A stretch of 37,859 nt of DNA from a virus (taxonomy: Duplodnaviria > Heunggongvirae > Uroviricota > Caudoviricetes). Location: the IMG/VR virus record IMGVR_UViG_2541047757_000015; one strand, written 5' to 3'. Shown here one piece after another: positions 386 to 37,859 of this stretch. A program made the position numbers and the translations under genes. Under the pieces are notes generated by a model. It saw only the letters and a program-made list of their open reading frames with translations, made no database searches and was not told the DNA's origin. Numbering within the stretch: position 1 is the stretch's first letter; the number at the start of each line of letters is the position of its first letter.

Positions 386-1624
386 ATGGCGCTGTCTGAT
401 GCGTGGTTGCGTTCAGTCGTTGGAAAGGAACGTGATAAGGTTTTGGTTAAATCCGATCGTGATGGTCTGTCTGTCAGAGTATCACCGAAAGGTCGCGTAG
501 TGTTCCAATATCGTTATCAATGGGCAGGGAAAGGTGAGCGCCTTGATATCGGAACTTACCCGGCAACTGGATTAAAAGAGGCCAGAGAAGAAGTTATCCG
601 TCTCCGTGGTGAACTCGAGTCAAACCGCAATCCACGATTAGTCAAGCAGGCTGAAAAACGAAAAGCTACTGAAGCCATGACGGTAGAGTCTGTGATCCGT
701 GCCTGGTATGAAGCATATTGTGTAAAAAATAAAAAAGGTTCTGAACAGATACTCCGCTCGTTTGAGCTGCACCTGTTCTCTAAAATCGGGAATATCCCTC
801 ACGATGCAGCTACATTGCATGATTGGTTAGAAGTCCTAGAGCCTCTTAGCACCAAGACTCCAGCAATAGTAGACCGATTGCTAATTAACGCAAAGCAGGC
901 TCATGTCTGGGCGTATAAGAGAAAGCTCATTGAAACTCGCCCACTGTCGGATATCACGGGTAAAGATATGGATATCCGTAAAGGTCAGAAAAAACGGTTT
1001 CTGACACATGATGAAATTAACATCCTTTATGCTGCGATCGATGGTTCTCGAATGGTTCCTAAATACCGAGCCTTCATTAAACTATTGCTGCATTTTGGTT
1101 GCCGTAGTTCAGAGCTAATTACTGCTAGGGTGGATGATTTTGATTTCATAAATAAGGTATGGACTGTACCACCAGAACGACATAAGACTGGGGACATAAC
1201 AGGCGAACCGCTAAAGCGGCCCATTATTGAACCGGTTGAAGAGCTTATAAAATACGTTATCTCTATGAACAACGGTTCCGATATGCTTTTTACTAAGGAA
1301 GGAAGCAGGGAGCCAGTTGGTCGGACATCATTGCAGTCGCTGCCTTACAATTTAATGCAGTTCGCATGGCGACGTTTGGGGTATCAATTTCCTCATTGGT
1401 CTCTTCATGATTTGAGACGAACAGCACGAACAAACTTTTCTGATCTTACTGCTCCTCATATTGCTGAAATAATGCTCGGTCATAAACTGCCAGGGGTATG
1501 GCAAGTTTATGATAAGAGCGATTATCTAGAAGAACAGCGTAAAGCCTATCAGGCATGGTGGGATAGGGTTGATTCGATTCTTACTTACACTAATTTAGGT
1601 TCCAACAGACAGCCTATTGAATAA
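386..1624 (+). CDS. Tyrosine-type site-specific integrase (phage integrase family)
   Basis: 412-aa ORF with ATG start and AGGTGA ribosome-binding site; C-terminal HxxR...Y-type catalytic region (WSLHDLRRTARTNFSDL ... GHKLPGVWQVYDKSDY); sits at the prophage end next to the prfC fragment. Confidence 0.9.
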   Translation: MALSDAWLRSVVGKERDKVLVKSDRDGLSVRVSPKGRVVFQYRYQWAGKGERLDIGTYPATGLKEAREEVIRLRGELESNRNPRLVKQAEKRKATEAMTVESVIRAWYEAYCVKNKKGSEQILRSFELHLFSKIGNIPHDAATLHDWLEVLEPLSTKTPAIVDRLLINAKQAHVWAYKRKLIETRPLSDITGKDMDIRKGQKKRFLTHDEINILYAAIDGSRMVPKYRAFIKLLLHFGCRSSELITARVDDFDFINKVWTVPPERHKTGDITGEPLKRPIIEPVEELIKYVISMNNGSDMLFTKEGSREPVGRTSLQSLPYNLMQFAWRRLGYQFPHWSLHDLRRTARTNFSDLTAPHIAEIMLGHKLPGVWQVYDKSDYLEEQRKAYQAWWDRVDSILTYTNLGSNRQPIE

Positions 1625-5213: not shown

Positions 5214-5740
5214 TTGCGTAACTCCGATAACTCGTTAAAACGTTCCATAAACATCCCGTAGGCATGGCCTGGTGACAGTGGAATAACTTTGAACATCTCT
5301 GTTGCCGGGATGCCTTCCAGTACAGGCCAGAAAGAGCCATCATCAAGCCCGAGATCACGGCGTTCGGTTGCCAGCATGATTAGATCGGCATATTTCACAG
5401 GCGTACTCATAACCGGGGGCAACTCGTATTTCTCACGGATTACTGCGTCTATTTTTTCTTCCATCCGTTTATAGTCAGGAAGAAGGCGTTTCAGTGGTGC
5501 GGGGATGTCCTGGCAATACGCTTCTGTTGCATCATGCATTAACGCTTCAAAAGCAAATTCCTGCGGCACCAGCTGGCTGCAAAGCACCGCATGTTGGGCG
5601 ACGCTGTAGAAGTGAGAAAGATGACCGGCAAAGCGGCAGATATTTGAAAGGGAAACCGCGATATCGTTAATCACGATGTCGTTTTTATTTATCTTGTCAT
5701 AATAAAAATGCTTCCCGGAAAAAGTTTTAATAAATGACAT
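5204..5740 (-). CDS. yfdR: HD-domain phosphohydrolase (YfdR-like 5'-deoxynucleotidase family)
   Basis: HD motif region SVAQHAVLCSQL ... ALMHDATEAY; internal ATG preceded by GGAG gives 178 aa, the length I recall for CPS-53 YfdR. Confidence 0.7.
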   Translation of the reverse strand: MSFIKTFSGKHFYYDKINKNDIVINDIAVSLSNICRFAGHLSHFYSVAQHAVLCSQLVPQEFAFEALMHDATEAYCQDIPAPLKRLLPDYKRMEEKIDAVIREKYELPPVMSTPVKYADLIMLATERRDLGLDDGSFWPVLEGIPATEMFKVIPLSPGHAYGMFMERFNELSELRKCA

Positions 5741-5867
5741 TTTGTTCTCCACGTATATGCACTGCACCGCGCTGAATTCTGGTAAAAGGAAGCCCTCACC
5801 ATCCGGTGATTATTGAGTTAATTACGTTTCCATAAATGCCCCCGCAGGGGCATTTGCAGTAATGAAA

Positions 5868-6692
5868 TCAGGCGGTGAAAGTACCAATAAAGGTTTCTAC
5901 TTTGCTGTCTTTGAATTTCTCAACAAGCAGATCACGAAATTCGTTAGCCATTTCTTCCTGGACTGCTTCCAACTGAATAATGCGCAGAACCAGTACAGGA
6001 CGATCGCCAGTGATAATGCTGAGGCGTAATTTAAACGGACGTTCTTTCAGACTTTCAAACGGAATGCATTTAAATTCAAATGCCACTGGCATAATATCTT
6101 TGGTCTTCGCTTCGACAGACTCCATCAGGGAGCGTTTTCCGCTGAAGTCATTATCTTCAAAATCAGCGGTCTGGTTTGCTTCAATCGTGATTTTACGGAC
6201 AGCCGCAGCCGCTTTTGTTGCCTGAATAGCGTCACCATTAGCATCAAAGCCTACAAGGTAGTCGGCCCAGTCTTCAATCCATTCTGCCAGTGACTTCTGG
6301 GAGTTACGCTCGCCGTTAACAGACAACAGAGCAGAGAACGGTGCTGTCTTTTTCAGTTTGAGAGTGGCAGTGTTATCTGCGTGACCTGGTTCATCAATAG
6401 TACCCAGGTTAAGCACACTGACGGCACGCATATTATCAGCATCGATAAAGCAGCGGGTGCCTTCATCTGCAAGATCTTTAGAATAACGGGTAAAGTCATC
6501 GATGCTGGCAGTGGAAAGCGCACCACGGAAACGGAAGCGATTTAAATTAAATTTTTCCAGATCATGAATGCGGAAATTCTCAGGCAATGCCACAGCATCG
6601 GCACCAATCTTACTGATAATTTCATTAACACCCTGAGCAGAAATAAGGGCATGGATTTGATTAATTGCGGTTGCGTCTAAGTTCTGAGACAT
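5868..6692 (-). CDS. yfdQ: YfdQ-like prophage protein (DUF2303 family)
   Basis: 274-aa ORF, ATG with GAGGA ribosome-binding site; length and position next to the HD protein match the CPS-53 yfdQ-yfdR arrangement as I recall it. Confidence 0.65.
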
Positions 6693-6757
6693 AATAAGTC
6701 CTCACTATATAAAGATATTCAGTGATGAGATAAATAATCAGTTTATTAAGAACGATA

Positions 6758-7120
6758 TTAATGACCTGCTGCGCGTAGTTTTCCGTCAGGCTCACCGGCA
6801 AGAGTCAGTAATTGTCCCTGGTCTTCCTGCAGAATAGTCAGGCGACCACCGCGATTGACATACATCGGCGTTTCGGTGGTGTCTTCTTCGGAAATTTTCC
6901 CGCGGTTAGTTGGGCGAACATATGAGAGTTTGTGTTTGATTTTCACACGGTTCTCATCAAACGGTTCGATTTCCAGATTGAGTGAGACCTTCCCTTTGGT
7001 TTTCGTGTTCATCACACCGGAAGCGACTTCACTGAGAACTGCGCCGATTTTGGTTTCAAATACGCCGCCGTCCAGCTCCCCGATAAATGCCTGCACATCA
7101 GTACTGCGTTCGCTAGCCAT
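6758..7120 (-). CDS. yfdP: YfdP-like prophage protein, first gene of the leftward early operon
   Basis: Internal ATG (MASERS...) preceded by GAGGAG gives 120 aa; lies directly downstream, on the leftward transcript, of the structured GC-rich leader. Confidence 0.55.
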   Translation of the reverse strand: MASERSTDVQAFIGELDGGVFETKIGAVLSEVASGVMNTKTKGKVSLNLEIEPFDENRVKIKHKLSYVRPTNRGKISEEDTTETPMYVNRGGRLTILQEDQGQLLTLAGEPDGKLRAAGH

Positions 7121-7139
7121 TTTGCTGCTCCTCATCATA

Positions 7140-7560
7140 TCGACCCTGCAAGGTCGGTTGGTTTCTCCACAAAACAGAGAAGAACACCTGGGTGGCAGCC
7201 GCCCGGATGGATTGGGTTATGAGCCCGTCGTCCGGTGATGCTCTTCTCTGTTTTGTAAAAAGAGCGGTGCCAGCCGGAAGCAAGTGTACAAACTGGTACC
7301 GCCAAAGCAGTGGCTGTTGTGGTGCCGGGTGCCTCCCGGTGCCTGGCGAAGGTTGCACACCAGGCGGGTGGGTATCCACAGAAGGTCGACTGTCAGCCTC
7401 AACCTTAACCCGCGTGCGCTGAGCCGCATTCACCACAACGCTAAGGATTCTCTCTGGTTGAAAATACTTAGCTGTTATGTGCCTGCTTTTAGCCACATCA
7501 GGCGAGGTGGACCTGGTTATTCCCCAACAACAAGGATTCGGTTAATCTTGATACCCCCAA
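7140..7560 (-). promoter_or_regulatory. GC-rich non-coding leader with a boxA-like motif and a 15-bp-stem hairpin; candidate nutL/put-like antitermination element or structured RNA
   Basis: Perfect 15-nt inverted repeat ACAAAACAGAGAAGA / TCTTCTCTGTTTTGT enclosing ~50 nt; on the minus strand GCTCTTTTTA (boxA-like) lies just 5' of the hairpin; ORFs here are Pro/Arg-rich and not protein-like. Confidence 0.3.
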
Positions 7561-7580
7561 TAACATGGTGATTATTTAAG

Positions 7581-8084
7581 ATGGACAAATTTGATAGAAG
7601 TGCACAAAGGCAGTTGTTACAAATACTGTATGATGCTCATCCTTATGAAATTTCTGATGATGCGTTGCAGTCTGTTCGTGACGCATTTGGAGATGATAAT
7701 GTCCTAATTTCGAACTTAATTTATCTCGAAGAACATGGCTTGATTAAGAATGCTCTTGATTATTACTTGGATGGCATAAATATAAATATTCCTGAATTAA
7801 GAATTACTAAAGATGGAATTGATTTCATTCGTGATGATGGAGGTCTTAAAGCTATTCTTGGGATTATGACAATAAGATTGCATGATGAGACTCTCTGTGA
7901 ACTTGAACGTATCATCAATAGTTCTACTTCTGCCACGACTGAAGATAAGAAGAAATTACTCTCTCAGCTTCGAACGCTTCCTGCCGACGCCATAAAACAG
8001 CTGACGATTCGATTACTTGGTCAGGGGCTTGACCATCTGCCGGACGTATTTCACGTAATTCAAAAAGCCCTCCATTCTCTGTAA
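7581..8084 (+). CDS. Hypothetical AT-rich accessory protein, possibly winged-helix-like at the N-terminus
   Basis: 167-aa ORF, ATG start, opposite orientation to flanking phage genes; TTGATA -35-like hexamer upstream placing a possible start near the ATG; own terminator downstream. Confidence 0.55.
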   Translation: MDKFDRSAQRQLLQILYDAHPYEISDDALQSVRDAFGDDNVLISNLIYLEEHGLIKNALDYYLDGININIPELRITKDGIDFIRDDGGLKAILGIMTIRLHDETLCELERIINSSTSATTEDKKKLLSQLRTLPADAIKQLTIRLLGQGLDHLPDVFHVIQKALHSL

Positions 8085-8262
8085 ATTCTGATTCTGGTCG
8101 GATTAGACAGAATCGTCCCCATCCGACCTGCTTACTAAGTAGAATCCAGAATTCGTCTTGTTGGTTGGTGCTGATAAAAAATCCATTAGGATGAACGTAA
8201 GCACAGAATATGACCATAGAACCCTCTTTTGTTACGGGGATACTAAGATTGTTAAAGAGCTA

Positions 8263-8286
8263 AGCGTCCTGTAGGGCGCTTTTTTG
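8263..8286 (+). terminator. Rho-independent terminator for the 7581..8084 gene
   Basis: Stem AGCGTCC / GGGCGCT with loop TGTA followed by TTTTTTG. Confidence 0.5.
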
Positions 8287-8370
8287 TTGCTAACGAATCA
8301 TCCGGTCATTCATACGCCACCGGCGGCTACTTCGTGGGCGTCCTGCCTGTCCGTGATAGCTTACATTATG

Positions 8371-8422
8371 TTGCTACTTAAAGTAGCAAAAATCAACAAC
8401 AAAAAGTAGATATTTGTTGTTG
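8371..8422. promoter_or_regulatory. 19-bp perfect palindrome plus adjacent 10-bp-stem hairpin; candidate left operator (O_L-like) for the CI repressor
   Basis: TTGCTACTT-A-AAGTAGCAA palindrome; adjacent CAACAACAAA ... TTTGTTGTTG inverted repeat; AAGTAG core is shared with the direct repeats at the cI start. Confidence 0.4.
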
Positions 8423-8607
8423 TCTATGATTTTTCTATAATTAATTGAAAGTTAAATGTTTTTGCTGATTTACTATGCTGTAAACTGAAAATATCGCACG
8501 AAGTTGGAGTAGGTATTGAGCATAGTGAATTATGAGGAGGGAGTTTTTTATGAGATTAATCAGGGAGAAAGAAGAGTAAAGCCCGGTTATGCGGCCGGGC
8601 ACATGCA

Positions 8608-9684
8608 TTACTTTGTAAGTTCTAGAACTCGTTGAGCCAGCCCTTTAAATTGTTCGTTAAAGGCGTCTCTGCTTGATTTCATTGTATTTAAGGCATGCCC
8701 AAATTGCCCTGAATCGCGAATTTGCTGATCACTGATGGAGAAAACAGGTGTCGCTAGTTGTTGGCTTATTGCGATTAATGAGTTGAAATCGGAAATATGC
8801 GCAAGATCATAGGCTGATAAATCTCCACTGACTGTTGTTTTGTTAATTGCATGTTGCACTTTATCTCGTGGAATTATGCAGGTAATTTTTTCTAGATTTG
8901 GCACTAAGATCGAATCAACAGCATCACGGATAGCTGCCATCCATTTTTCGAAAGATTTTACAGGTGCTCCTTTACGCGGCCTGTATCTCTGCTGAATCAT
9001 ACCTAGAAACTGCGGTGCATTTTTAATTGATTGTGAAGAGTTACCATCATTATTTTCTTTAAATAATGCTAATTCTTTGTGCCAGCGAGGTATATTTTTT
9101 GAGAGAGAGCGAATTGCTTGCCAGCAAAAAAAGTCTGGAGCTACAGGTACGATAAAATAGTCACTTGACATGAGAACTACTTCATTTAAACCTCCAACAT
9201 TAGGGCTGAGATCATAAAGAATGTAATCAATATTATTCTTCATGGCGATTAGCTGTAATATTTTTGGCAGGTTCCCTGGTATATTTCTTGTAGCAGGAAT
9301 ACCAGCAGCAATTTTTAGAGAAACACTTATCTGTGAATCTAAGTCCGAAACATCTAAATGTCCGGGAAGAAGCAGAAGGTTTTCATGCAGTGTAGGGTGT
9401 AATTTTCCCGTTTCTTTTTCAAGGTATGCTTCAGGTTGTCCGCCATTAATCAAATATTCTACAATAGGTCCAAGAGTTAAGTTATCTCTGCTAGAATAAA
9501 AAGAATCTAAACCCTCATCAATCTTTTCATAGCCAAGAACCATTCCTGTTAGATTACATTGCGAATCAAGGTCAACCATCAATACTTTCTTGCCTTCATC
9601 CGCAAGTGCCCATCCAAGATTGAAGGTTGTTGTGGTTTTACTTACCCCACCTTTATGATTAAAAAAACAAATTGATTTTGTCAT
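8608..9684 (-). CDS. ParA/MinD-superfamily ATPase with a long C-terminal extension; orphan, no ParB seen
   Basis: 358-aa ORF; deviant Walker A NHKGGVSKTTT at the N-terminus, A' motif VLMVDLDSQCN, Walker B-like ILYDLSP; directly downstream of cI on the same strand; AT-rich. Confidence 0.8.
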   Translation of the reverse strand: MTKSICFFNHKGGVSKTTTTFNLGWALADEGKKVLMVDLDSQCNLTGMVLGYEKIDEGLDSFYSSRDNLTLGPIVEYLINGGQPEAYLEKETGKLHPTLHENLLLLPGHLDVSDLDSQISVSLKIAAGIPATRNIPGNLPKILQLIAMKNNIDYILYDLSPNVGGLNEVVLMSSDYFIVPVAPDFFCWQAIRSLSKNIPRWHKELALFKENNDGNSSQSIKNAPQFLGMIQQRYRPRKGAPVKSFEKWMAAIRDAVDSILVPNLEKITCIIPRDKVQHAINKTTVSGDLSAYDLAHISDFNSLIAISQQLATPVFSISDQQIRDSGQFGHALNTMKSSRDAFNEQFKGLAQRVLELTK

Positions 9685-9854
9685 ATTTCTCTATCCTTTC
9701 GACCCCCAGCATATTGTAATTTACGCTGGGTGATTATTTTATATTGTTAATGATAATGTTTAATAAAAATAAGAGAGTAAAACAACTATTAGTAATAGCA
9801 CTTGCTTGATAAATATTATTTTTTCACCTTTAGTTCTATAGTCTAAACGAAGAA

Positions 9855-10616
9855 CTAAAGCCGGTTGTATTTAATTGATTCGTGTATCAATGCTTTGCCC
9901 ATAACATAAAGTTGATCTTGGGACTTCTCATCAATGTACCATTTCTCATAGGCTGGATTATCCGAAAGAACGGCGAGTTTGTTGCCTTGCATTTGTAGAC
10001 GTTTAACGTGGAACGTCTTACCATAAACGAAAGAGTAAACACCATCAGTTTGGAAGTTGCGAACAGAAATGTCGACAAACAGTCGATCTCCGGAAACTAG
10101 AGTAGGGGACATGCTGTCGCCATTTACAGTCATAACTTTAATATCATCTTGAGAACGATTACCGAAAAGAGAACGGGCATGCTCTGTTGTGAACTCAATG
10201 GCGTAGAGCACATCAACATAGTCTGAAAGCATATAGGTTCCAGGTCCTGCGCTAACGCTAAGATCCAAAACTTCTATCCTGTATACATCGGGTTTTGTTG
10301 GATTGGGGATGCTTGCCATTTCCTTACATCCTTCTCTCTCGCCAACACCATATTCTAAATATGAAGCTGATACCCCCAGAGCCAATGCAAGTTTATTCAT
10401 GACAGAGGCACGAGGCTTCGCAGCGCCGATTGTGTATCGCCGCGCCATTTCATATGTAACGCCCACAAGACTTTTGAGTTGGGTGACAGAAATTCCCTTG
10501 TTTGTCATTAGCTCGTTTAGTCTCTTGGCGAAATCTGGATACTTCTGTTCTTCTACCATAGGTAGAAGGTTACTCGCATCACATACGCTAGTCATTTCTA
10601 TTTTAAGTAGTTGCAT
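9855..10616 (-). CDS. CI-like phage repressor (N-terminal HTH plus C-terminal S24 LexA-like peptidase domain)
   Basis: HTH region GISVTQLKSLVGVTYEMARRY; Ala-Gly cleavage site (SVSAGPG); S24 motifs GDSMSPT and HVKRL; divergent from the cro-like gene. Confidence 0.85.
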   Translation of the reverse strand: MQLLKIEMTSVCDASNLLPMVEEQKYPDFAKRLNELMTNKGISVTQLKSLVGVTYEMARRYTIGAAKPRASVMNKLALALGVSASYLEYGVGEREGCKEMASIPNPTKPDVYRIEVLDLSVSAGPGTYMLSDYVDVLYAIEFTTEHARSLFGNRSQDDIKVMTVNGDSMSPTLVSGDRLFVDISVRNFQTDGVYSFVYGKTFHVKRLQMQGNKLAVLSDNPAYEKWYIDEKSQDQLYVMGKALIHESIKYNRL

Positions 10617-10633
10617 TCTGCTATTTTAAGTAG
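10598..10633. promoter_or_regulatory. Candidate right operator region: two direct repeats CTATTTTAAGTAG spanning the cI start and the cI-cro intergenic region
   Basis: Seen directly; shares the AAGTAG core with the palindrome at 8371..8389; cI-cro intergenic is only ~49 bp, so the cI transcript may be leaderless. Confidence 0.45.
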
Positions 10634-10665
10634 CATCATCCCTCTGAATTTCAGAGGAGAAAGGT

Positions 10666-10929
10666 ATGTCATCTCAAAACTACACAGAGAAAGCAGTAAA
10701 AGCTGCGGGAAAATCTTTATCTGAAGTAGCCCGTCACTTTGGTTTTAAGTCCACTCAATCCGTCGCTAATTGGGTAATTAACAATCAAGTCCCGTCAGAA
10801 CGGGTTTTACAACTTTGTGAGTTGGGAAACTGGTCCGTGACCCCTCATGAACTGCGTCCTGATATTTACCCCAATCCAAATGATGGATTACCTGAGTGCT
10901 ATTCAAAAGTTAGCGGTTCAGCTGCGTAA
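10666..10929 (+). CDS. Cro-like HTH regulator
   Basis: 87-aa ORF, ATG with GAGGAG ribosome-binding site; HTH LSEVARHFGFKSTQSVANW; divergent from cI. Confidence 0.75.
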   Translation: MSSQNYTEKAVKAAGKSLSEVARHFGFKSTQSVANWVINNQVPSERVLQLCELGNWSVTPHELRPDIYPNPNDGLPECYSKVSGSAA

Positions 10930-10957
10930 ACGTAACCACAGAAACGAGGAGTTAACC

Positions 10958-11509
10958 GTGGGTAAGCATCACTGGAAAATAGAAAAACAGCCTGAGTGGT
11001 ACGTGAAAGCTGTCAGAAAAACTATCGCAGCGTTGCCGGGGGGTTACGCTGAAGCTGCTGACTGGCTGGACGTAACAGAGAACGCATTATTTAACCGCCT
11101 TCGTGCCGATGGCGATCAGATTTTCCCGCTGGGATGGGCAATGGTTTTACAGCGTGCTGGTGGCACTCACTTCATTGCTGATGCTGTGGCGCAGTCTGCA
11201 AATGGCGTATTTGTGTCTCTTCCTGACGTCGAGGATGTGGACAACGCCGATATTAACCAGCGTCTGCTGGAAGTCATTGAACAGATCGGCAGTTATTCAA
11301 AACAGATTCGTTCAGCAATCGAAGACGGTGTAGTGGAACCGCATGAGAAGACAGCAATTAACGACGAGCTGTATCTCTCAATTTCGAAGCTGCAGGAGCA
11401 TGCAGCACTGGTCTACAAAATCTTTTGCATTTCAGAAAGTAATGACGCCCGCGAGTGTGCAGCTCCGGGCGCCGTGGCGTGTCGTGACTGTGGAGAAACT
11501 AACGCATGA
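10958..11509 (+). CDS. CII-like phage regulatory protein (possibly Phage_CP76 family)
   Basis: GTG start with GAGGAG ribosome-binding site just after cro; ~183 aa; position between cro and the replication genes; family assignment is from recollection only. Confidence 0.5.
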
Positions 11510-11844
11510 ACAGTTTAACAACACACTACCGTCGCTCGCAACTGATTGCGCTTCCTGTACCGGGTGGAAAAGCGAAGGTGGAGTATTGCTATGCAGTGAA
11601 TGTACCAGGTGATAGGGAAATTGTAACCCACAGCTTTGCAGAGTGGGCTGTGGGTGATTTCAACCGGCAGAAGGAGACAGTCCTTTGCGACAAGTTAACC
11701 GCTGGTTCAAAGATCACTACGGAGTGCCCGTCAGAGTCATTCGTTGGGAGCCGGAAACACAACGGGTTATCTACCTCCGTGAAGGCTATGAACATGAATG
11801 CTTCAGTCCGCTCGAACAGTTTCGTCGTAAATTCAGGGAAATAG
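11506..11844 (+). CDS. Hypothetical ORF with ATGA-coupled start; C-terminal third is low-complexity and overlaps the next ORF in another frame
   Basis: ATG overlaps the stop of the CII-like gene; first ~60 codons are protein-like, the remainder is Ser-rich. Confidence 0.3.
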
Positions 11845-11897
11845 AGGTCGGTCATGAGCCTGTTAATGACATCCCAGCCCATTGTGATAAATCGTGA
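11685..11897 (+). CDS. Hypothetical small protein (70 aa), alternative frame to the 11506 ORF
   Basis: Protein-like composition throughout, but the ORF-track start is TTG; could be the true downstream part of a frameshifted gene. Confidence 0.3.
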
Positions 11898-12846
11898 TCT
11901 TGCATGCCGTATTGGTCTGAATGAGGCAATTGTGTTGCAGCAGCTTCATTACTGGCTGAATGAAACGAATTCAGGCACTGAGCATGGCGGAATTCGCTGG
12001 GTTTATAACACGACAGAACAGTGGCTGGAGCAGTTTCCGTTCTGGTCAGAGTCCACTCTGAAACGCACATTTGCAAGCCTGAAATCACTTGGGGTTTTGC
12101 GTCGCGAGCAACTCAATAAATCGAAGCGTGACATGACCAACTTCTACACGATCAACTATGAAAGTGAGCTTTTAGAAGAGGTCAAAGTGAACGAATCCAT
12201 CAGGTCAAAATGCACTTCTCCATCGGGTCAAAGTGACCTGATGGATGAGCGCAAAATGACACGATCCATTGGTTCAAAACGACACGCTGTCATCGGGTCA
12301 AAATGGCCCAATGATCTTACAGAGAATACAACAGAGATTACTACAGAGAATAAAACCTCTTCTCGTCCGGACGCTTCGCAACCGGACACGCAGATGGCTG
12401 AACAGGATTTTTTAACTCGCCATCCTGATGCGGTTGTATTCAGCCCTAAAAAGCGCCAGTGGGGAACGCAGGATGATTTGACCTGCGCACAGTGGCTCTG
12501 GAAAAAAATCATCGCTCTGTACGAGCAGGCCGCCGAATGTGACGGCGAAGTGGTACGTCCTAAAGAACCGAACTGGACAGCCTGGGCAAACGAAATTCGC
12601 CTGATGTGTGTACAGGATGGGCGTACTCACAAACAAATCTGCGAGATGTACAGCCGCGTCAGCCGCGATCCGTTCTGGTGCCGTAACGTGCTCAGCCCGT
12701 CGAAGCTGCGGGAAAAATGGGATGAGCTTTCCCTGCGCTTATCGCCGTCCGTCAGCACGTACACAGAAAAACGCGAAGATCCGTACTTCAAAGCCAGTTA
12801 CGACAACGTGGACTACAGCCAGATCCCGGCAGGATTCAGGGGGTGA
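11854..12846 (+). CDS. Phage replication initiation protein (lambda O-like role) with origin iterons inside the gene
   Basis: 330-aa ORF, ATG with AGAGG ribosome-binding site; N-terminal HTH-type domain; internal iterons and AT-rich tract as in lambda ori. Confidence 0.75.
   Translation: MSLLMTSQPIVINRDLACRIGLNEAIVLQQLHYWLNETNSGTEHGGIRWVYNTTEQWLEQFPFWSESTLKRTFASLKSLGVLRREQLNKSKRDMTNFYTINYESELLEEVKVNESIRSKCTSPSGQSDLMDERKMTRSIGSKRHAVIGSKWPNDLTENTTEITTENKTSSRPDASQPDTQMAEQDFLTRHPDAVVFSPKKRQWGTQDDLTCAQWLWKKIIALYEQAAECDGEVVRPKEPNWTAWANEIRLMCVQDGRTHKQICEMYSRVSRDPFWCRNVLSPSKLREKWDELSLRLSPSVSTYTEKREDPYFKASYDNVDYSQIPAGFRG
12175..12360. repeat. Replication origin candidate: five ~22-24-bp-spaced iterons (consensus ..CATCrGGTCAAArTG..) followed by an A-rich ACAGAGA-repeat tract
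   Basis: Seen directly: AGGTCAAAGTGA, AGGTCAAAATGC, GGGTCAAAGTGA, TGGTTCAAAACGA, GGGTCAAAATGG, then ACAGAGAATACAACAGAGATTACTACAGAGAATAAAA. Confidence 0.55.
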
Positions 12847-12940
12847 TCATGAGTCTTTTGAATGAAGTTCAGAAATTCATTGAAGCCCATCCGGGGTGTA
12901 CTTCCGGAGACATTGCGGATGCTTTTTACGTGGGGGCTTA

Positions 12941-13594
12941 ATGAGTAATAAATATTGTCAGGCGCTGGTGGAGCTGCGGAACAAACCATCCCATGAACTG
13001 AAGGAGGTGGGCGATCAGTGGCGCACGCCGGACAGCATTTTCTGGGGAATTAACACCTTGTTTGGCCCGTTTGTTCTGGATCTGTTCACTGACGGTGATA
13101 ACGCCAAATGTGCCGCGTATTACACGGCGGAAGACAACGCGCTGGCGCATGACTGGTCAGAACGCCTTGCGGAGCTTAAAGGTGCTGCCTTTGGCAATCC
13201 CCCATACAGTCGCGCCAGTCAGCATGAGGGGCAATACATCACCGGCATGCGTTACATCATGAAACATGCCAGTGCCATGCGTGATAAGGGCGGGCGCTAT
13301 GTTTTCCTGATCAAAGCTGCCACCAGCGAAGTGTGGTGGCCGGAAGATGCGGACCATATTGCTTTTATTCGCGGGCGTATTGGTTTTGAACTGCCTGCCT
13401 GGTTTATCCCGAAAGATGAGAAGCAGGTGCCGACAGGCGCTTTCTTCGCTGGTGCTATTGCTGTTTTTGACAAGACCTGGAAGGGACCGGCAATCAGCTA
13501 CATCGGGCGCGATGAACTTGAGGCATGTGGTGAGGCCTTTCTGGCGCAGGTTCGCCAGCAGGCAGAAAAACTGGTCAGGGAGATGGTGGCATGA
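12941..13594 (+). CDS. Phage N6-adenine DNA methyltransferase (Dam-like, NPPY motif)
   Basis: Internal ATG (MSNKYCQ...); motif GNPPYS; ~217 aa; stop overlaps the rusA start. Confidence 0.8.
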   Translation: MSNKYCQALVELRNKPSHELKEVGDQWRTPDSIFWGINTLFGPFVLDLFTDGDNAKCAAYYTAEDNALAHDWSERLAELKGAAFGNPPYSRASQHEGQYITGMRYIMKHASAMRDKGGRYVFLIKAATSEVWWPEDADHIAFIRGRIGFELPAWFIPKDEKQVPTGAFFAGAIAVFDKTWKGPAISYIGRDELEACGEAFLAQVRQQAEKLVREMVA

Positions 13595-13980
13595 AGCTGA
13601 TCCTGCCTTTTCCGCCCAGCGTGAACACGTACTGGCGACACCCCAACAAAGGGGCGTTTGCTGGTAAGAGCCTGATAAGCGCGGCGGGGCGCAAATTCCA
13701 GAGCGCGGCGTGTGCAGCAATAGTTGAGCAGTTACGTCGTCTGCCAAAACCAACGTCGGCACCTGCTTCAGTGGAGATTGTGTTGTTTCCTCCGGATAAC
13801 CGGATCCGCGATCTGGACAACTATAACAAGGCGCTGTTTGACGCCCTGACCCACGCGGGTGTGTGGGAAGACGACAGTCAGGTGAAAAGAATGCTGGTGG
13901 AGTGGGGACCGGTTATCCCGGAAGGGAAGGTCGAGATCACTATCAGTAAGTACGAGAAAACGGCGGGTGCAGCCGCCTGA
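13591..13980 (+). CDS. rusA: RusA-type Holliday junction resolvase
   Basis: 129 aa; MKLILPFPPSVNTYWR ... DLDNYNKALFDALTHAGVWEDDSQV typical of RusA; ATGA coupling with the upstream gene. Confidence 0.85.
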   Translation: MKLILPFPPSVNTYWRHPNKGAFAGKSLISAAGRKFQSAACAAIVEQLRRLPKPTSAPASVEIVLFPPDNRIRDLDNYNKALFDALTHAGVWEDDSQVKRMLVEWGPVIPEGKVEITISKYEKTAGAAA

Positions 13981-14810: not shown

Positions 14811-15806
14811 GTGACCGTGAGAGCACTACTGACCCCTGAAATTGCCCCGCGTATGGGGATTGTATTGTTCAGGCCAGGTTCAGAGCTGATGCCCCTGTTT
14901 ATGCAGGGGCGTGTCCTGCTGGAGCCTGAGCCGGAACGTTATTCATCTTTCGCCAGTGGTGCCGTTCCGGCGGCATCACAACCGCTGGCGGATGATCCTG
15001 CCGTTCGGGCCGTGTTCCGCAATGAGGCAGTGATCCGTCGTGCTGGTGGCGTGGAATGTCTTGAAAGCTGGTTACTTCGTGAAAAGGGCTGTCAGTGGCC
15101 TCATTCCGACTGGCACAGCGAGAACATGACCACAATGCGGCACGCTCCGGGAGCAATTCGTCTGTGCTGGCACTGCGATAACCAGCTGCGTGACCAGTTC
15201 ACGGAACGGCTGGAATCAATGGCAACGGATAACTGTGCCCGCTGGGTGTTGTCTGTCGTGCGTCGGGATCTCGGTTTTGATGACAGTCACGTTGTGACAA
15301 TGCCGGAACTGTGCTGGTGGCTGGTTCGTAATGATTTGGCGGATGCCTTACCGGAAAGTGCAGCCCGTAAGGCACTGAGATTACCGAAGCCTGTTGTGCC
15401 ATCTGTCACCCGGGAAAGTGACCTTGTGCCTTCGGTTCCTGCCACCAGCATCATCCAGGATAAAGCGAAAAAGGTGCTGGCGCTGAAAGTGGATCCGGAG
15501 TCGCCGGAGTCTTTTATGTTACGCCCCAAACGTCGCCGCTGGGTTAATGAAAAGTACACGCGCTGGGTTAAGACGCAGCCGTGCGCATGTTGTGGAAAGC
15601 CAGCTGATGATTCCCACCACCTGATAGGCCACGGTCAGGGTGGAATGGGTACAAAAGCGCATGATCTCTTTGTGTTGCCTTTGTGCAGAAAGCATCACGA
15701 CGAGCTGCATGCGGATACCGTGACATTTGAAGAGAAGTATGGCTCCCAACTGGAGCTGATATTTCGTTTTATCGATCGTGCGCTGGCAATTGGCGTACTG
15801 GCGTAA
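14811..15806 (+). CDS. DUF968-family protein (YdfU-like), cysteine/histidine-rich C-terminus
   Basis: GTG start; C-terminal CACCGKPADDSHHLIGHGQGGMGTKAHD ... CRKHHDELH; sits just upstream of the Q-like gene as in Qin. Confidence 0.65.
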   Translation: MTVRALLTPEIAPRMGIVLFRPGSELMPLFMQGRVLLEPEPERYSSFASGAVPAASQPLADDPAVRAVFRNEAVIRRAGGVECLESWLLREKGCQWPHSDWHSENMTTMRHAPGAIRLCWHCDNQLRDQFTERLESMATDNCARWVLSVVRRDLGFDDSHVVTMPELCWWLVRNDLADALPESAARKALRLPKPVVPSVTRESDLVPSVPATSIIQDKAKKVLALKVDPESPESFMLRPKRRRWVNEKYTRWVKTQPCACCGKPADDSHHLIGHGQGGMGTKAHDLFVLPLCRKHHDELHADTVTFEEKYGSQLELIFRFIDRALAIGVLA

Positions 15807-15819
15807 GTGGAGAACGAGC

Positions 15820-16572
15820 ATGAACCTTGAAGCCTTACCAAAATATTACTCCCCAAAATCTCCAAAATTGAGTGATGCCGCACCGGCGACAGGCTCAGGT
15901 GGTTTAACGATTACGGATGTGATGGCTGCGCAGGGGATGGTGCAGTCGAAAGCACCGCTTGGGTTTGCCTTATTCCTGGCAAAAGCTGGCGTTCAGGATC
16001 CTCAGTTTGCGATTGAAGGTCTGCTCAATTACGCGATGGCACTGGATAACCCGACATTGAACAAATTGAGTGAAGAAATCCGGTTACAGATCATCCCTTA
16101 CCTTGTGAGTTTTGCCTTTGCTGATTATTCCAGGTCTGCGGCAAGTAAGGCTCGCTGTGAGCCTTGTGCTGGTACTGGATTTCATAATGTATTGCGCGAA
16201 GTGGTGAAATACTCCAGAAGCGGGGAGTCTGTTATCAAGGAAGAGTGGGTGAAGGAACTATGTCAGCATTGTCATGGTAAGGGAGAAGTCAGCACAGCGT
16301 GCAGAGGGTGTAAGGGTAAAGGTATTGTCCTGGATGAAAAAAGGACCCGGCTTCATGGCGCGCCTGTTTATAAGATTTGTGGGCGTTGCAATGGAAACCG
16401 GTTTAGTCGTTTACCAACGACACTGGCGCGGTGTCATGTCCAGAAGCTGGTACCAGACCTGACTGATTATCAGTGGTACAAAGGATATGCAGATGTCATT
16501 GATAAACTGGTTACAAAGTGCTGGCAGGAAGAAGCATATGCTGAGGTGCAATTAAGAAAAGTGACGAGATAA
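15820..16572 (+). CDS. Late-gene antiterminator Q-like protein
   Basis: Internal ATG with GGAG ribosome-binding site; zinc-ribbon cysteines (CEPCAGTG, CQHCHGKG, CRGCKGKG); followed by a strong terminator and then the late-region genes. Confidence 0.7.
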   Translation: MNLEALPKYYSPKSPKLSDAAPATGSGGLTITDVMAAQGMVQSKAPLGFALFLAKAGVQDPQFAIEGLLNYAMALDNPTLNKLSEEIRLQIIPYLVSFAFADYSRSAASKARCEPCAGTGFHNVLREVVKYSRSGESVIKEEWVKELCQHCHGKGEVSTACRGCKGKGIVLDEKRTRLHGAPVYKICGRCNGNRFSRLPTTLARCHVQKLVPDLTDYQWYKGYADVIDKLVTKCWQEEAYAEVQLRKVTR

Positions 16573-16675
16573 ATGATTTTCGCCGAAGATGGCGACGTAA
16601 TGCTTGCATTTTTCAAAAAATATGGATAAAATTTTTTCAACGATGGGCTTTATATACCCGACGTTAAGAAAAAGT

Positions 16676-16704
16676 AGAAAACCCGCTGATGAGCGGGTTT
16701 TTGT
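16676..16704. terminator. Rho-independent terminator, probably bidirectional (downstream of Q and of the convergent cspF)
   Basis: CCCGCT-GATG-AGCGGG stem-loop flanked by an A-run and a T-run. Confidence 0.6.
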
Positions 16705-16987
16705 GCTTTAGATAGGGTAATAGAGATGTTGAATCTCATTCCGGGATTCATGTTTATTTACTTATTATTTATCGGGTGACTTTGCCTGATGTTTAAAATG
16801 TTTTCTTCCAGTACTATGTCCCTAGATACAATGAGTCTGCATATTACATTATTAGCAGAGCTATTACGGTCAAAGTACAGCATAAGCTTTTAAAGCCAAT
16901 CAACCAGTCATCAAGACAGACGGGGTTATTCATGAAAACTCTCCATGTTTGATTCGATGGGGCCTGAAATTAAAGCTTTAATATAGC

Positions 16988-17200
16988 TCATGAAAGGTAA
17001 ACATTGGCAGCTGAAGGGCCACGCAGACCATTTATCCGGCAAAATTCCACGCGTAATCCGGTGGTAATTTCTTCTGCATCGCGGAGATTGAGCGCTGAAA
17101 CATGAAGCTGGACATCGATACGACCATCGGATGGGGTGATAAGACCCTTGCCGCTTTTGCCGTCAAAGGTTTTGACAATTCCTGTCATTTTACGGGACAA
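16988..17200 (-). CDS. cspF: Cold-shock protein family member (CspF-like)
   Basis: 70 aa, [26 protein letters not shown] ... cold-shock domain; matches my recollection of Qin CspF. Confidence 0.8.
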
Positions 17201-17500
17201 AAAAATTCCTTAATACTGATAACTGGGCGCACTATACACACGTTCCTGAAGAAAGCTATAGTTTTTTGATGGGGTTGAAGATGGCTGGATGTCTAAAATA
17301 AACATTGCTTCATATGTTCAACTATGCGTTAATGATTGCGTCGGTTTGAAGAACAGACGATATACGAAGTAGTTTACTAAAGCAGTTCTCATTTCAGGTG
17401 TTATTCACTTATTCCTTCTTTGAGTCTCTCCAATTAAGTACGAAGTCGTTTCTGTTATACAAGCCATTTATGCCGAAAGGCTCAAGTTAAGGAATGTAGA

Positions 17501-17716
17501 ATGTCAAATAAAATGACTGGTTTAGTAAAATGGTTTAACGCTGATAAAGGTTTTGGCTTTATTTCTCCTGTTGATGGTAGTAAAGATGTGTTTGTGCATT
17601 TTTCTGCGATTCAGAATGATAATTTTCGAACCTTGTTTGAAGGTCAAAAGGTTACCTTCTCTGTAGAGAGTGGTGCTAAAGGTCCTGCAGCAGCAAATGT
17701 CATAATTACTGATTAA
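17501..17716 (+). CDS. cspB: Cold-shock protein CspB-like
   Basis: 71 aa, [38 protein letters not shown] ... nucleic-acid-binding cold-shock domain. Confidence 0.85.
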
Positions 17717-17994
17717 AATTCATAGTTTGTCTGTATACGATAACGAAGAAGGCTGATGCCTGAGTGGAGATACAGACAGAGTGGTGAATATTGGATCTCT
17801 TTAATAAATAGTAAGGAGGTCCAATACATGAAACAATGGCCAGCATATTTGGCAATAACTTAATCAGGAAAAGTATGCTAACCATTGTGGTGAAGTGCAG
17901 GTTTGCTGCATGAATAGTTTTACAGCAGAAGCTAACTGCTGGCATAGCAAAACAAAGTGCGTAAGTGGATGACTCCCACAAAAAGTACCACAAT

Positions 17995-18022
17995 ATTAAA
18001 CCCGCTCAGGCGGGTTTTTTAT
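17995..18022 (+). terminator. Rho-independent terminator
   Basis: CCCGC-TCAG-GCGGG followed by TTTTTTATT. Confidence 0.5.
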
Positions 18023-18197
18023 TATCTGCTTTAAATATGTTATTAAAATATAAAAAATACTTGTTACGAATAAAATCAATCAAGCTACAGCTTTAAGATT
18101 TGTCTGGAATACTTTGTTGCAATGAGGGCAGATCAAAAGGGCACCTTTTTGTACTCTTGAAAAACTGTGTTCTGACTCTTGGGTGCTGGATTTGCCC

Positions 18198-19103
18198 CTA
18201 TATTTCCAGACACCTGTTATCACTTAACCCATTACTGGCCTGCTGCCGCAGATATTCCCGTGGCGAGCGATAACCCAGTGCACTATGCGGATGCCATTCG
18301 TTATAATGCTCGAACGCCTCTGCAAGGTTCTTTGCTGCCGTTAACCCGTCTGGTTTAGGCATGATACTGATGTAGTCACGCTTTATCGTTTTCACGAAGC
18401 TCTCTGCTATGCCGTTACTCTCCGGACTCCGCACCGCCGTGTTCTTCGGTTCAAGCCCCAACATCCGGGCAAACTGCCGTGTTTCATTAGCCCGGTAGCA
18501 TGAACCATTATCCGTCAGCCACTCTACTGGAGACGCCGGAAGCTCGTTGCCGAAGCGGCGTTCCACCGCTCCCAGCATGACGTCCTGTACTGTTTCACTG
18601 TCGAAGCCGCCCGTAGTGACTGCCCAGTGCAGTGCCTCACGGTCACAGCAGTCCAGCGCGAACGTGACTCGCAGTTTTTCTCCGTTATCACAGCGGAACT
18701 CGAACCCGTCAGAGCACCATCGTTGATTGCTTTCTTTCACGGCCACTTTGCCAGTATGTGCCCGTTTCGATGGCGGTACAGCGGTTTTTCGCTCAAGCAA
18801 CAGCGCATTCTGGCGCATGATCCGGTAAACACGTTTGGCATTGATCGCAGGCATACCATCAAGTTCGGCCTGTCTGCGAAGCAGCGCCCATACCCGACGA
18901 TAACCATACGTGGGCAGCTCTCCGATAACATGGTGTATACGGAGAAGCACATCCGTATCATCTGAGTGACGGCTGCGGCGACCATCTTTCCAGTCATCGG
19001 TTCGTCTGAGAATTACGTGCAACTGCGCACGCGACACCCGGAGACAACGGCTGACTAAGCTTACTCCCCATCCCCGGGCAATAAGGGCGCGTGCGCTATC
19101 CAC
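18198..19103 (-). CDS. insD: IS2 transposase OrfB (InsD), DDE integrase-core domain
   Basis: 301-aa ORF recognised as IS2 InsD. Confidence 0.9.
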
Positions 19104-19426
19104 TTTTTTGCACGCCCGTATTCAACGGCTTCTTTAAGGAGTTCATTTTCCATCGTTTTTTTGCCGAGCAGGCGCTGGAGTTCTTTAATCTGCTTCATGG
19201 CAGCAGCAAGTTCAGAGGCAGGAACGACCTGCTCTCCTGCGGCCACAGCAGTAAGACTTCCCTCCTGGTATTGCTTGCGCCAGAGAAATAACTGGCTGGC
19301 TGCCACACCGTGTTGCCGGGCAACAAGGGAGACCGTCATTCCCGGTTCAAAACTCTGCTGAACAATAGCGATCTTTTCCTGTGTAGTACGCCGTCTGCGT
19401 TTCTCCGGTCCTAAGACATCAATCAT
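19061..19426 (-). CDS. insC: IS2 transposase OrfA (InsC), HTH
   Basis: Internal start [26 protein letters not shown] ... gives 121 aa; overlaps insD as expected for a -1 frameshift fusion. Confidence 0.85.
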
Positions 19427-19804
19427 CTGCTCTCCAATGACTAGTCTAAAAACTAGTATTAAGACTATCACTTATTTAAGTGATATTGGTTGTCTGGAGA
19501 TTCAGGGGGCCAGTCTAGGTGCAGTTTGGGCAGGAACATTTAACGAGATAATTACGGCGTGATTTTGAGTCTTTACGTTCTGACATAGGCTTTTCCTGTA
19601 TAAATGGCCGTATACAGTACACTAAATATGAAAACATATCTCGTATTATTATTTAATATATGATTTTCTTTTAAAATAATTACCCACATTTTTAATGTGT
19701 CTGTTTTTTAGCGCCGTTGAGAACAACGTTTGCTATAAAAACTAACCCATAGACTCCGATCTTTTCAAACATATTGCACCATCTGTGTACATCGGGGTGA
19801 GGAT

Positions 19805-27206: not shown

Positions 27207-27397
27207 TGGCAATTCTTGATGATGTGATTGGCGTTTTTTCACCAGGATGGAAAGCGGCAAGGCTGCGTTCCCGTGCGGTGATCCAGGCTTATGAGGCCGT
27301 AAAAACGACGCGGACACACAAAGCCCGGCGGGAAAACCGAACTGCCGACCAGTTAAGCCAGTACGGGGCCGTGTCGTTACGTGAGCAGGCCCGTTAA
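27206..27397 (+). pseudogene. N-terminal remnant (~63 codons) of the portal protein gene, truncated by an internal deletion
   Basis: ATG overlaps the W stop (TGATG) exactly where lambda B begins; ORF stops after 63 codons and is followed by a tail-gene fragment. Confidence 0.5.
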
Positions 27398-33737: not shown

Positions 33738-33797
33738 TGAAAAACGTTTTATGTGAAACCGCCTCCGGGCGGTTTTGTCGTTTATGGAGCGTTAGGA

Positions 33798-36700
33798 ATG
33801 GGTAAAGGCAGCAGTAAGGGGCATACTCCGCGCGAAGCGAAGGACAACCTGAAGTCCACGCAGTTGCTGAGTGTGATCGATGCCATCAGCGAAGGGCCGA
33901 TTGAAGGTCCGGTGGATGGATTAAAAAGCGTGCTGCTGAACAGTACGCCAGTGCTGGACACTGAGGGGAATACCAACATCTCCGGCGTCACGGTGGTGTT
34001 CCGGGCAGGTGAACAGGAGCAGACACCGCCGGAGGGATTTGAATCCTCCGGCTCCGAGACGGTGCTGGGTACGGAAGTGAAATATGACACGCCGATCACC
34101 CGCACCATCACGTCGGCAAACATCGACCGTCTGCGCTTTACCTTCGGTGTGCAGGCACTGGTGGAAACCACCTCAAAGGGGGACAGGAATCCATCGGAAG
34201 TCCGCCTGCTGGTTCAGATACAGCGTAACGGTGGCTGGGTGACGGAAAAAGACATCACCATTAAGGGCAAAACCACCTCGCAGTATCTGGCCTCGGTGGT
34301 GGTGGATAACCTGCCGCCGCGCCCGTTTAATATCCGGATGCGCAGGATGACGCCGGACAGCACCACAGACCAGCTGCAGAACAAAACGCTCTGGTCGTCA
34401 TACACCGAAATCATCGATGTGAAACAGTGCTACCCGAACACGGCACTGGTTGGCGTGCAGGTGGACTCGGAGCAGTTCGGCAGCCAGCAGGTGAGCCGTA
34501 ATTATCATCTTCGCGGGCGCATTCTGCAGGTGCCGTCGAACTATAACCCGCAGACGCGGCAATACAGCGGTATCTGGGACGGAACGTTAAAACCGGCATA
34601 CAGCAACAACATGGCCTGGTGTCTGTGGGATATGCTGACCCATCCGCGCTACGGCATGGGGAAACGTCTTGGTGCGGCGGATGTGGATAAATGGGCGCTG
34701 TATGTCATCGGCCAGAATTGCGACCAGTCGGTGCCGGACGGCTTTGGCGGCACGGAGCCGCGCATCACCTGTAACGCTTACCTGACCACACAGCGCAAGG
34801 CGTGGGATGTGCTCAGTGATTTCTGCTCGGCGATGCGCTGTATGCCGGTATGGAACGGGCAGACGCTGACGTTCGTGCAGGACCGACAGTCGGATAAGGT
34901 GTGGACCTATAACCGCAGTAATGTGGTGATGCCGGATGATGGCGCGCCGTTCCGCTACAGCTTCAGCGCCCTGAAGGACCGCCATAATGCCGTTGAGGTG
35001 AACTGGATTGACCCGAACAACGGCTGGGAGACGGCGACAGAGCTTGTTGAAGATACGCAGGCCATTGCCCGTTACGGTCGTAATGTCACGAAGATGGATG
35101 CCTTTGGTTGTACCAGTCGGGGGCAGGCACACCGAGCCGGGCTGTGGCTGATTAAAACGGAACTGCTGGAAACGCAGACCGTGGATTTCAGCGTGGGCGC
35201 AGAAGGGCTTCGCCATGTGCCGGGCGATGTTATTGAAATCTGCGATGATGACTATGCCGGTATCAGCATCGGTGGTCGCGTGCTGGCGGTGAACAGCCAG
35301 ACCCGGACGCTGACGCTCGACCGTGAAATCACGCTGCCATCCTCCGGCACCACGCTGATAAGCCTGGTTGACGGTGAGGGTAATCCGGTCAGCGTGGAGG
35401 TCCAGTCCGTCACCGACGGCGTGAAGGTGAAAGTGAGCCGTGTTCCTGACGGCGTTGCTGAATACAGCGTGTGGGGGCTGAAGTTGCCGACGTTGCGCCA
35501 GCGCCTGTTCCGCTGCGTGAGTATCCGTGAGAACGACGACGGCACGTATGCCATCACTGCCGTGCAGCATGTACCGGAGAAAGAGGCCATCGTGGATAAC
35601 GGGGCGCACTTTGACGGCGACCAGAGCGGCACGGTGAATGGTGTCACGCCGCCAGCGGTGCAGCACCTGACTGCCGAAGTCACCGCAGACAGCGGGGAAT
35701 ATCAGGTGCTGGCCCGCTGGGACACGCCGAAAGTGGTGAAGGGCGTGAGCTTCCTGCTTCGCCTGACCGTGGCAGCGGATGACGGCAGTGAGCGGCTGGT
35801 CAGCACGGCCCGGACGACGGAAACCACATACCGCTTCACGCAACTGGCGCTGGGGCGTTACATGCTGACGGTCCGGGCGGTAAATGCGTGGGGGCTGCAG
35901 GGCGATCCGGCATCGGTATCGTTCCGGATTGCCGCACCGGCAGCGCCGTCTCGGATTGAGCTGACACCGGGCTATTTTCAGATAACCGCCACGCCACATC
36001 TTGCGGTTTATGACCCGACGGTACAGTTTGAGTTCTGGTTCTCGGAAAAACGGATTGCGGATATCAGGCAGGTTGAAACCACAGCCCGCTATCTTGGCAC
36101 GGCGCTGTACTGGATAGCTGCCAGTATCAATATCAGGCCGGGCCATGATTATTATTTTTACGTTCGCAGTGTGAACACCGTTGGCAAATCGGCATTCGTG
36201 GAGGCTGTTGGTCGGGCGAGCGATGATGCGGAAGGTTACCTGGATTTTTTCAAAGGCCAGATAACCGAATCCCATCTTGGCAAGGAGCTGCTGGAAAAAG
36301 TCGAGCTGACGGAGGATAACGCCAGCAAACTGGAGGAGTTTTCGAAAGAGTGGAAGGACGCCAGTGATAAGTGGAATGCCATGTGGGGCGTCAAAATTGA
36401 GCAGACCAAAGACGGCAAACATTATGTCGCGGGTATTGGCCTCAGCATGGAGGACACGGAGGAAGGCAAACTGAGCCAGTTCCTGGTTGCCGCTAACCGT
36501 ATCGCGTTTATTGATCCGTCTAATGGCAACACAAGACCAATGTTTGTTGGTCAGGGCGATCAGATATTCATGAACGACGTGTTCCTGAAACGCCTGACGG
36601 CTCCGACCATTACCAGCGGCGGTAATCCTCCGGCATTTTCCCTGACACCGGATGGGCGGCTGACGGCGAAAAATGCCGATATCAGCGGTAACGTGAATGC

Positions 36701-37190
36701 GAACTCCGGGACGCTCAACAACGTCACGATTAACGAGAACTGTCGGGTTCTGGGAAAACTGTCCGCGAACCAGATTGAAGGCGATCTCGTTAAAACAGTG
36801 GGCAAAGCTTTCCCCCGGGACTCCCGTGCACCGGAACGGTGGCCATCAGGGACCATTACCGTCAGGGTTTATGACGATCAGCCGTTTGACCGGCAGATTG
36901 TTATTCCTGCGGTGGCATTCAGCGGCGCTAAACATGAGAGAGAGCATACTGATATTTACTCCTCATGCCGTCTGATAGTGCGGAAAAACGGTGCTGAAAT
37001 TTATAACCGTACCGCGCTGGATAATACGCTGATTTACAGTGGCGTTATTGATATGCCTGCCGGTCACGGTCACATGACGCTGGAGTTTTCGGTGTCAGCA
37101 TGGCTGGTAAATGACTGGTATCCCACAGCAAGTATCAGCGATTTGCTGGTTGTGGTGATGAAGAAAGCCACCGCAGGCATCAGTATCAGC
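33798..37190 (+). CDS. J: Tail tip / host specificity protein J; no in-frame stop at the expected end, frame continues into lom
   Basis: Near-identical to lambda gpJ over the N-terminal ~980 aa ([18 protein letters not shown] ...); C-terminal ~150 aa diverge; end placed at the lambda-equivalent position, 1131 codons. Confidence 0.8.
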
Positions 37191-37210
37191 GAATTTTATA
37201 ACCCATATAC

Positions 37211-37238
37211 GGGCGCCAGAAATGGCGCCTTTTTTATT
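37211..37238 (+). terminator. Rho-independent terminator in the J-lom spacer
   Basis: GGGCGCC-AGAAAT-GGCGCC followed by TTTTTTATT. Confidence 0.5.
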
Positions 37239-37259
37239 GCAGAAAAGCGAGAGGTAATT

Positions 37260-37859
37260 ATGCGTAAAGTTTGTGCAGCCATTTTGTCCGCAGCCATTTG
37301 TCTGGCCGTATCCGGTGCGCCTGCATGGGCGTCTGAACATCAGTCCACGCTGAGCGCGGGGTATCTTCATGCCTCGACGAACGTCCCCGGCAGTGATGAT
37401 CTGAACGGGATTAACGTGAAATACCGTTATGAGTTTACGGACACACTGGGGCTGGTGACGTCATTCAGCTATGCAGGAGACAAGAATCGCCAGCTGACCC
37501 GTTACAGCGATACCCGCTGGCATGAAGATTCCGTTCGTAACCGCTGGTTCAGCGTAATGGCGGGGCCGTCTGTGCGCGTGAATGAATGGTTCAGCGCGTA
37601 TGCGATGGCGGGTGTAGCTTACAGCCGTGTGTCGACTTTCTCCGGGGATTATCTTCGCGTAACTGACAACAAGGGGAAAAAGCACGATGTGCTGACCGGA
37701 AGTGATGACGGTCGCCACAGCAACACGTCTCTGGCGTGGGGGGCTGGCGTGCAGTTTAACCCGACCGAATCCGTGGCCATTGATATTGCTTATGAAGGCT
37801 CCGGCAGTGGCGACTGGCGCACTGACGGTTTCATCGTGGGTGTCGGTTATAAGTTCTGA
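37260..37859 (+). CDS. lom: Lom outer-membrane protein (Ail/Lom family)
   Basis: [24 protein letters not shown] signal peptide and beta-barrel body nearly identical to lambda Lom; GAGAGG ribosome-binding site; the window ends at its stop codon. Confidence 0.85.

Follow-up and report, generated by a model that had tools for sequence, protein, structure and literature searches.

The question raised by this locus is why the tail gene J of a lambdoid prophage has no stop codon and is read without interruption into the neighbouring gene lom. The window analysed is a stretch of 37,859 nt (IMG/VR record IMGVR_UViG_2541047757_000015), and in it J and lom form one continuous frame. The ORF listing and its translation gave a single ORF covering J, the spacer and lom, which has 1368 codons from its GTG start and 1353 codons when counted from the ATG at 33798, the position at which J starts in the relatives. 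The original prediction of a J without a stop, followed by 23 codons and then by the lom ATG, was therefore borne out. The parts of the fused frame are given below, in positions of the window.

33753..37859, + strand: mechanical ORF through J, spacer and lom, 1368 codons, GTG start.
33798..37190, + strand: J, lambda-type tip attachment or central tail fibre protein, 1131 codons from the relatives' ATG, stop missing.
37190..37191, + strand: site of a 1-base deletion, the T of J's TGA being absent here and present in all relatives examined.
37191..37259, + strand: bridge of 23 codons, formerly the J-lom intergenic spacer, translated in the shifted frame.
37211..37238, + strand: intrinsic-terminator-like hairpin, GGGCGCCA-GAAA-TGGCGCCT and then a T-run, inside the open frame.
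37249..37254, + strand: lom Shine-Dalgarno GAGAGG, 5 nt before the ATG, as read from the sequence.
37260..37859, + strand: lom, precursor of an Ail/Lom outer-membrane beta-barrel, 199 codons plus TGA.

The ATG of lom occupies 37260-37262, and its TGA (37857-37859) is the last triplet of the window.

The loss of the J stop was thus confirmed, but its cause had to be specified as a frameshift by deletion of one base. In the alignment with the nearest relatives, the prophages of E. coli S88, APEC O1 and H6, the window reads ATCAGC-GAA-TTT against ATCAGC-TGA-ATTTT, and a substitution in the stop codon was consequently rejected. Read in codons, S88, the Qin-like remnant H6 and two Stx2a phages have ATC AGC TGA ATT TTA TAA, and the window has ATC AGC GAA TTT TAT AAC. 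A base-by-base walk against S88 placed the lost T between 37190 and 37191, the junction sequence containing the T being CAGCTGAAT. Alignment with lambda and related prophages had been proposed as a check from the beginning, and it returned the TGA in S88, H6, the Stx2a phages and, at the homologous position, lambda, with the T missing from the window; the TGA stands in all close homologues examined, none of which has the continuous frame as its normal state. These alignments also bear on the idea that a long J-Lom isoform is a normal product, for instance of programmed recoding, for which nothing speaks beyond the open frame itself. The relatives have the in-frame TGA and further close stops, as in TGA ATT TTA TAA of S88, and the frame is open only through the base missing in this clone, which leaves this explanation with hardly any probability at all. 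A conserved read-through or frameshift as the source of J-Lom was excluded, as the relatives keep the TGA.

The length of the spacer accounts for the extent of the fusion. In the wild type, the stretch that begins with the T of the TGA and ends just before the lom ATG measures 70 nt; one base fewer leaves 69 nt, or 23 codons. The same T deletion was simulated in four backgrounds (S88, H6, Stx2a_WGPS2 and lambda). In S88 and H6, where the spacer has 67 nt, the outcome was exactly the fusion of the window, stop-free and in phase with lom; in Stx2a_WGPS2 (66-nt spacer), a TAA appeared just before lom, and in lambda (61-nt spacer), a stop followed after 15 codons. Since only the 67-nt spacer yields an in-phase frame, the J-lom fusion is owed to the chance length of the spacer in this lineage, in which any −1 shift within the last codons of J runs directly into lom.

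An open frame of this kind may reflect a sequencing or assembly error, as the original prediction had allowed; the T would then be present in the bacterium and have been dropped from the consensus. The exact 1353-aa product was found on two draft scaffolds, KE699872.1 (GCA_000457635.1, 366,705 bp) and KE699873.1 (GCA_000457655.1, 607,797 bp), under the accessions EQQ96918.1 and EQR06942.1 and the name 'phage tail component [Escherichia coli HVH 115 (4-4465997)]'. The window was 100% identical to both drafts across the 14,062 bases fetched. The positions of the N-gaps downstream of lom differ between the two, which marks them as separate assemblies, so that the same base is gone from two data sets with different scaffolding and gaps. 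Moreover, the assembly is not prone to indels, as the lost T is the only one in 22.3 kb (three long collinear blocks) compared with S88, beside 20 substitutions, and the 10.4-kb tail block differs from S88 by four substitutions and this one deletion. Furthermore, the deletion site, GC[T]GA, is no homopolymer, and a random sequencing error is probably not the cause. On the other side, the junction occurred in no other public sequence searched (complete E. coli genomes, IMG/VR, JGI metagenomes and GTDB representatives), the two drafts are neighbours in accession number, with only one name returned for the protein, and may stem from a single project or pipeline, so that a shared systematic artefact is conceivable, and a J-into-lom read-through found elsewhere (P0011, NCTC, UGDM01000004) looks like a read error. 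Weighing the two separately assembled drafts and the single indel against these points, the reading as an error was disfavoured, and an artefact is considered improbable.

The distribution of the junction was followed through several collections. A total of 4,446 matching records were obtained from complete E. coli genomes, the best of which were 99.6% identical and 232 bases long against the 231 of the query, and which therefore carry the T. No 100% match to the mutant junction was found among 5,426 complete E. coli genomes. Exact scans of IMG/VR with a 40-mer of the mutant junction and with a background-tolerant 27-mer (ATCAGTATCAGCGAATTTTATAACCCA) returned nothing, and neither did the exact scan with ATCAGTATCAGCGAATTTTATAACCCA of the JGI metagenomes and the GTDB species representatives. 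As these exact scans were empty, the mutation is not demonstrable outside the two drafts and, as far as the collections show, it appears confined to one clone.

Other J-Lom fusions were sought by a junction-spanning protein search of public collections, and the chimeric J/Lom ORFs P0011, P0128, P0008, P0002, P0005, P0006 and P0007 were recovered, all as single-member clusters except P0008 (5 sequences). In P0011, the C-terminus of J is read through the same spacer frame into lom after one C was lost from a CC run that lies eight codons upstream of the J stop. At its locus (GCA_900449685.1, UGDM01000004.1, 1000-7500), J is spread over at least four ORFs and lom is interrupted by an IS21 whose genes are likewise broken up, which probably reflects read error in an indel-rich assembly. 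With so many split ORFs and a shift in a CC run, P0011 is weak as an independent second case. P0128 joins ~880 residues of J in frame to the last ~66 residues of Lom through an internal deletion, and P0002, P0005, P0006 and P0007 have the order Lom then J, which suggests recombination or misassembly between prophage copies. Most of the chimeras, being products of internal deletion or of the Lom-then-J order, were thus rejected as instances of the same event. P0001, P0003 and P0004 are also among the public Lom/J oddities, and some Lom proteins have internal tandem duplications; such oddities may have arisen where the many lambdoid prophages of a genome recombined or were misassembled. None of the chimeras suggests a conserved or functional J-Lom fusion, and the literature searches found neither a J-Lom fusion described nor a physical link between Lom and J.

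Both halves of the fused product were otherwise undamaged. The J protein is 100% identical to gpJ of S88 (WP_000515501.1), the gene differing by two nucleotides, both synonymous, and the Lom protein is 100% identical to WP_001233090.1 of S88. As neither protein has otherwise diverged from its S88 counterpart, the loss of the stop is recent. J sits directly after Phage_tail_L, an NLPC_P60/JAB protein (K) and Lambda_tail_I, and its residues 86-1131 contain, in this order, FNIII-A_GpJ, Phage-tail_3, two Ig_J, Phage_Tail_Tip and Ig_GpJ_C, all six Pfam families above their cut-offs. The last of them (PF12421, 'C-terminal receptor binding domain') covers residues 1001-1131. Among the solved gpJ structures compared with 36441-37859 of the window, 8iyk was matched over chain residues 882-1131 of 1132 (E 4e-91) and 9wca up to its last chain residue, ...AGISIS (E 2e-112), and the chains end at the residue where the stop of the window was lost. 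The 9wca/9wcb entries are a non-lambda gpJ fragment ('A8 gpJ 713'), the C-terminus of which, ...AGISIS, is like that of the window's J. In the fused frame, the free C-terminus right after the receptor-binding domain is absent, and 222 more residues follow residue 1131. For the second half, Ail_Lom (PF06316) was matched in full length at residues 1155-1353 of the fusion (profile positions 1-199 of 199, E 5e-121), and the PDB chain 9wso, a Lom that has itself been structurally solved, was matched with E 5.5e-50, together with OmpX and Ail. The signal sequence, Shine-Dalgarno and ATG of lom appear intact and the same as in S88, with the putative signal peptide lying internally in the fused frame; the GAGAGG is conserved in S88, the Stx2a phage and lambda.

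The original prediction had also placed a terminator hairpin in the bridge, and a terminator-like stem was indeed found at 37211-37230, with 8 pairs (6 of them G-C) and a 4-nt loop (GAAA), followed by TTTTTTATT. The hairpin was present in both the MFE and the centroid folds, with a local fold z-score of only −1.45, and the terminator call is a consensus match, with 1 site found compared to 1.2 expected from shuffles in the 1.26-kb region. The pair 6-15 of the stem, C-G here, is T-A in the Stx2a phages, a compensatory change, and lambda has a different hairpin and T-run at the same place, the conservation being one of three lineages only. By its structure and conserved position, the hairpin fits an intrinsic (Rho-independent) terminator, and termination is predicted. 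The wild-type J stop lies 18 nt before the stem. A sigma-70 promoter scan of 36600-37859 found no promoter for lom.

The arrangement is close to that of lambda (J 15505-18903, lom 18965-19585), which has the same order of J, terminator and lom, a short spacer with a GC-rich hairpin and a T-run, and a GAGAGGT Shine-Dalgarno before lom. The J of lambda ends in ...GISVV* and that of S88 in ...GISIS*, at the homologous residue. However, lambda keeps the TGA and has a spacer of 61 nt, compared to 67 nt in the lineage of the window.

The decay of a defective prophage had been proposed as another origin of the open frame. The window consists of a lambdoid prophage next to yjjG, with the integrase at 386..1624 and, in the drafts, prfC downstream of the prophage. 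An intact near-identical prophage occupies the same site in S88 and APEC O1, and the S88 sister shares 99.65-99.98% identity with the window over the three long segments (22.3 kb); unlike the window, it keeps the J stop and the complete block of head genes and is free of IS2, and its early region differs. Two further lesions separate the window from it.

27395..27396: junction of a 5,521-bp deletion compared with S88 (locus L005 27468-32988), with a 2-bp microhomology, TA.
18187..19517, − strand: complete IS2 of 1331 bp, with TnpA and TnpB (NCBIfam).

The deletion cuts the portal gene to 63 codons followed by a stop and also removes the protease/major-capsid fusion, the head-tail genes, U and most of the major tail protein gene V, of which the last 62 codons remain, ending at 27585. 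The IS2 (TnpA 19061-19471, TnpB 18198-19103) is flanked by a 5-bp target duplication, GGTGC, at 18182-18186 and 19518-19522, and it lies in a ynfU-like region between the Q antiterminator (15778..16572) and the holin/lysis genes, where it may be polar on late transcription. Judging by this gene content, the prophage is defective and unable to make particles, and, since it cannot make them, J would not be under selection for virion function. The two proposals of a genuine stop loss and of decay in a defective prophage are therefore jointly supported by the two drafts with the fusion, the sole indel compared with S88, the head-gene deletion and the IS2.

Several other features of the prophage were recorded. 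The early and immunity region (1-13600) is mosaic compared with S88, with 89-97% identity in patches and several unmatched segments, and identity rises to 99.6-99.98% in the late region. The repressor (HTH and Peptidase_S24) is at 9855-10616 and a CII-like gene at 10847-11509. Adjoining the integrase, 1777-3372 (−) encodes 531 aa that include a cytidine/dCMP deaminase domain, and this protein matched the PADLOC 'dCTPase' anti-phage defence model (E 1e-164); an identical protein was found in 593 blocks of the public collection, the five loci listed being all prophages at the same site. In the early-left region, 8608-9684 (−) encodes a 358-aa ParA/MinD-like ATPase (AAA_31), with only a weak PADLOC match (PDC-M28B). 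Finally, the 131-aa ORF at 4504-4899 (−) matched a short N-terminal part of the profiles of type II or orphan DNA methyltransferases and may be a fragment.

In cryptic E. coli prophages such as Qin and Rac, domestication and decay proceed through frameshifts, deletions and inserted IS elements. Like them, the window combines a point frameshift, a multi-kb microhomology deletion and an IS2, with lom left intact. Unlike usual prophage decay, the frameshift makes a long fusion ORF and not a truncation. Taken together, a real, recent and clone-specific deletion of a single base, best understood as neutral decay, is very probably what the locus presents. Under this explanation, the head genes would have been lost before the J stop. 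The later loss of the T of the TGA would then have opened the 67-nt spacer as a stop-free frame in phase with lom, giving the 1353-codon ORF.

The consequences would depend on the state of the prophage. Few lambda genes are expressed in lysogens, lom being one of them (PMC7067206; PMC12309495), and in the lysogenic state the output of Lom would be expected to be unaffected, with J untranscribed and lom keeping its Shine-Dalgarno, ATG and signal peptide. On induction, if late transcription persists, ribosomes would run past the end of J, cross the terminator stem and continue into lom. The predicted product of ~150 kDa would consist of J, a linker of 23 residues and preLom. With the Lom signal peptide 1,154 residues into the chain, export and insertion of the barrel would probably be lost. 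The receptor-binding domain of J would bear a 222-residue appendage, which would be irrelevant for a prophage without heads. In vivo, a terminator situated towards the end of a translated region is repressed (PMC4824070), and the one in the bridge would probably be weakened by translation through it, compared with the wild type, in which translation stops 18 nt before the stem. It is very doubtful, on the other hand, that the stop loss is not neutral, either through abolished termination that couples lom and the tail-fibre genes to late transcription or through a J-Lom protein active on induction as an envelope stressor or decoy.

A related possibility is that the fusion is functional or selected, with J displaying a Lom module, or with read-through of the terminator raising the expression of lom and of the downstream tail-fibre genes. 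The fused frame is complete, both of its parts are undamaged at the protein level, and a terminator can be suppressed when ribosomes translate across it (PMC4824070). However, only one clone carries the fusion, the prophage can build neither heads nor tail tubes, so that there is no virion in which an altered J could function, and the beta-barrel of Lom needs at its N-terminus the signal peptide that is here buried in the chain. Moreover, the PF12421 domain of J ends at residue 1131, where the solved chains also end, and the spacer is in phase only by the chance of being 67 nt long. A selected fusion was accordingly judged very unlikely, and neutral decay is kept as the explanation of the locus.

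The deposited record carries a practical consequence for annotation, as the 1353-aa product appears there as a plain 'phage tail component'. Moreover, clustering at 90% grouped it with a 199-aa Lom representative and six other Lom members of 199 aa, and such fusion ORFs can mislead domain-architecture surveys into reporting a 'J with an Ail/Lom domain'. For the biology of these prophages, the event is an ordinary one of small weight, its sequence being already deposited, and it adds one more case in which a prophage no longer able to form particles gathers frameshifts while an accessory gene expressed in lysogeny stays intact.
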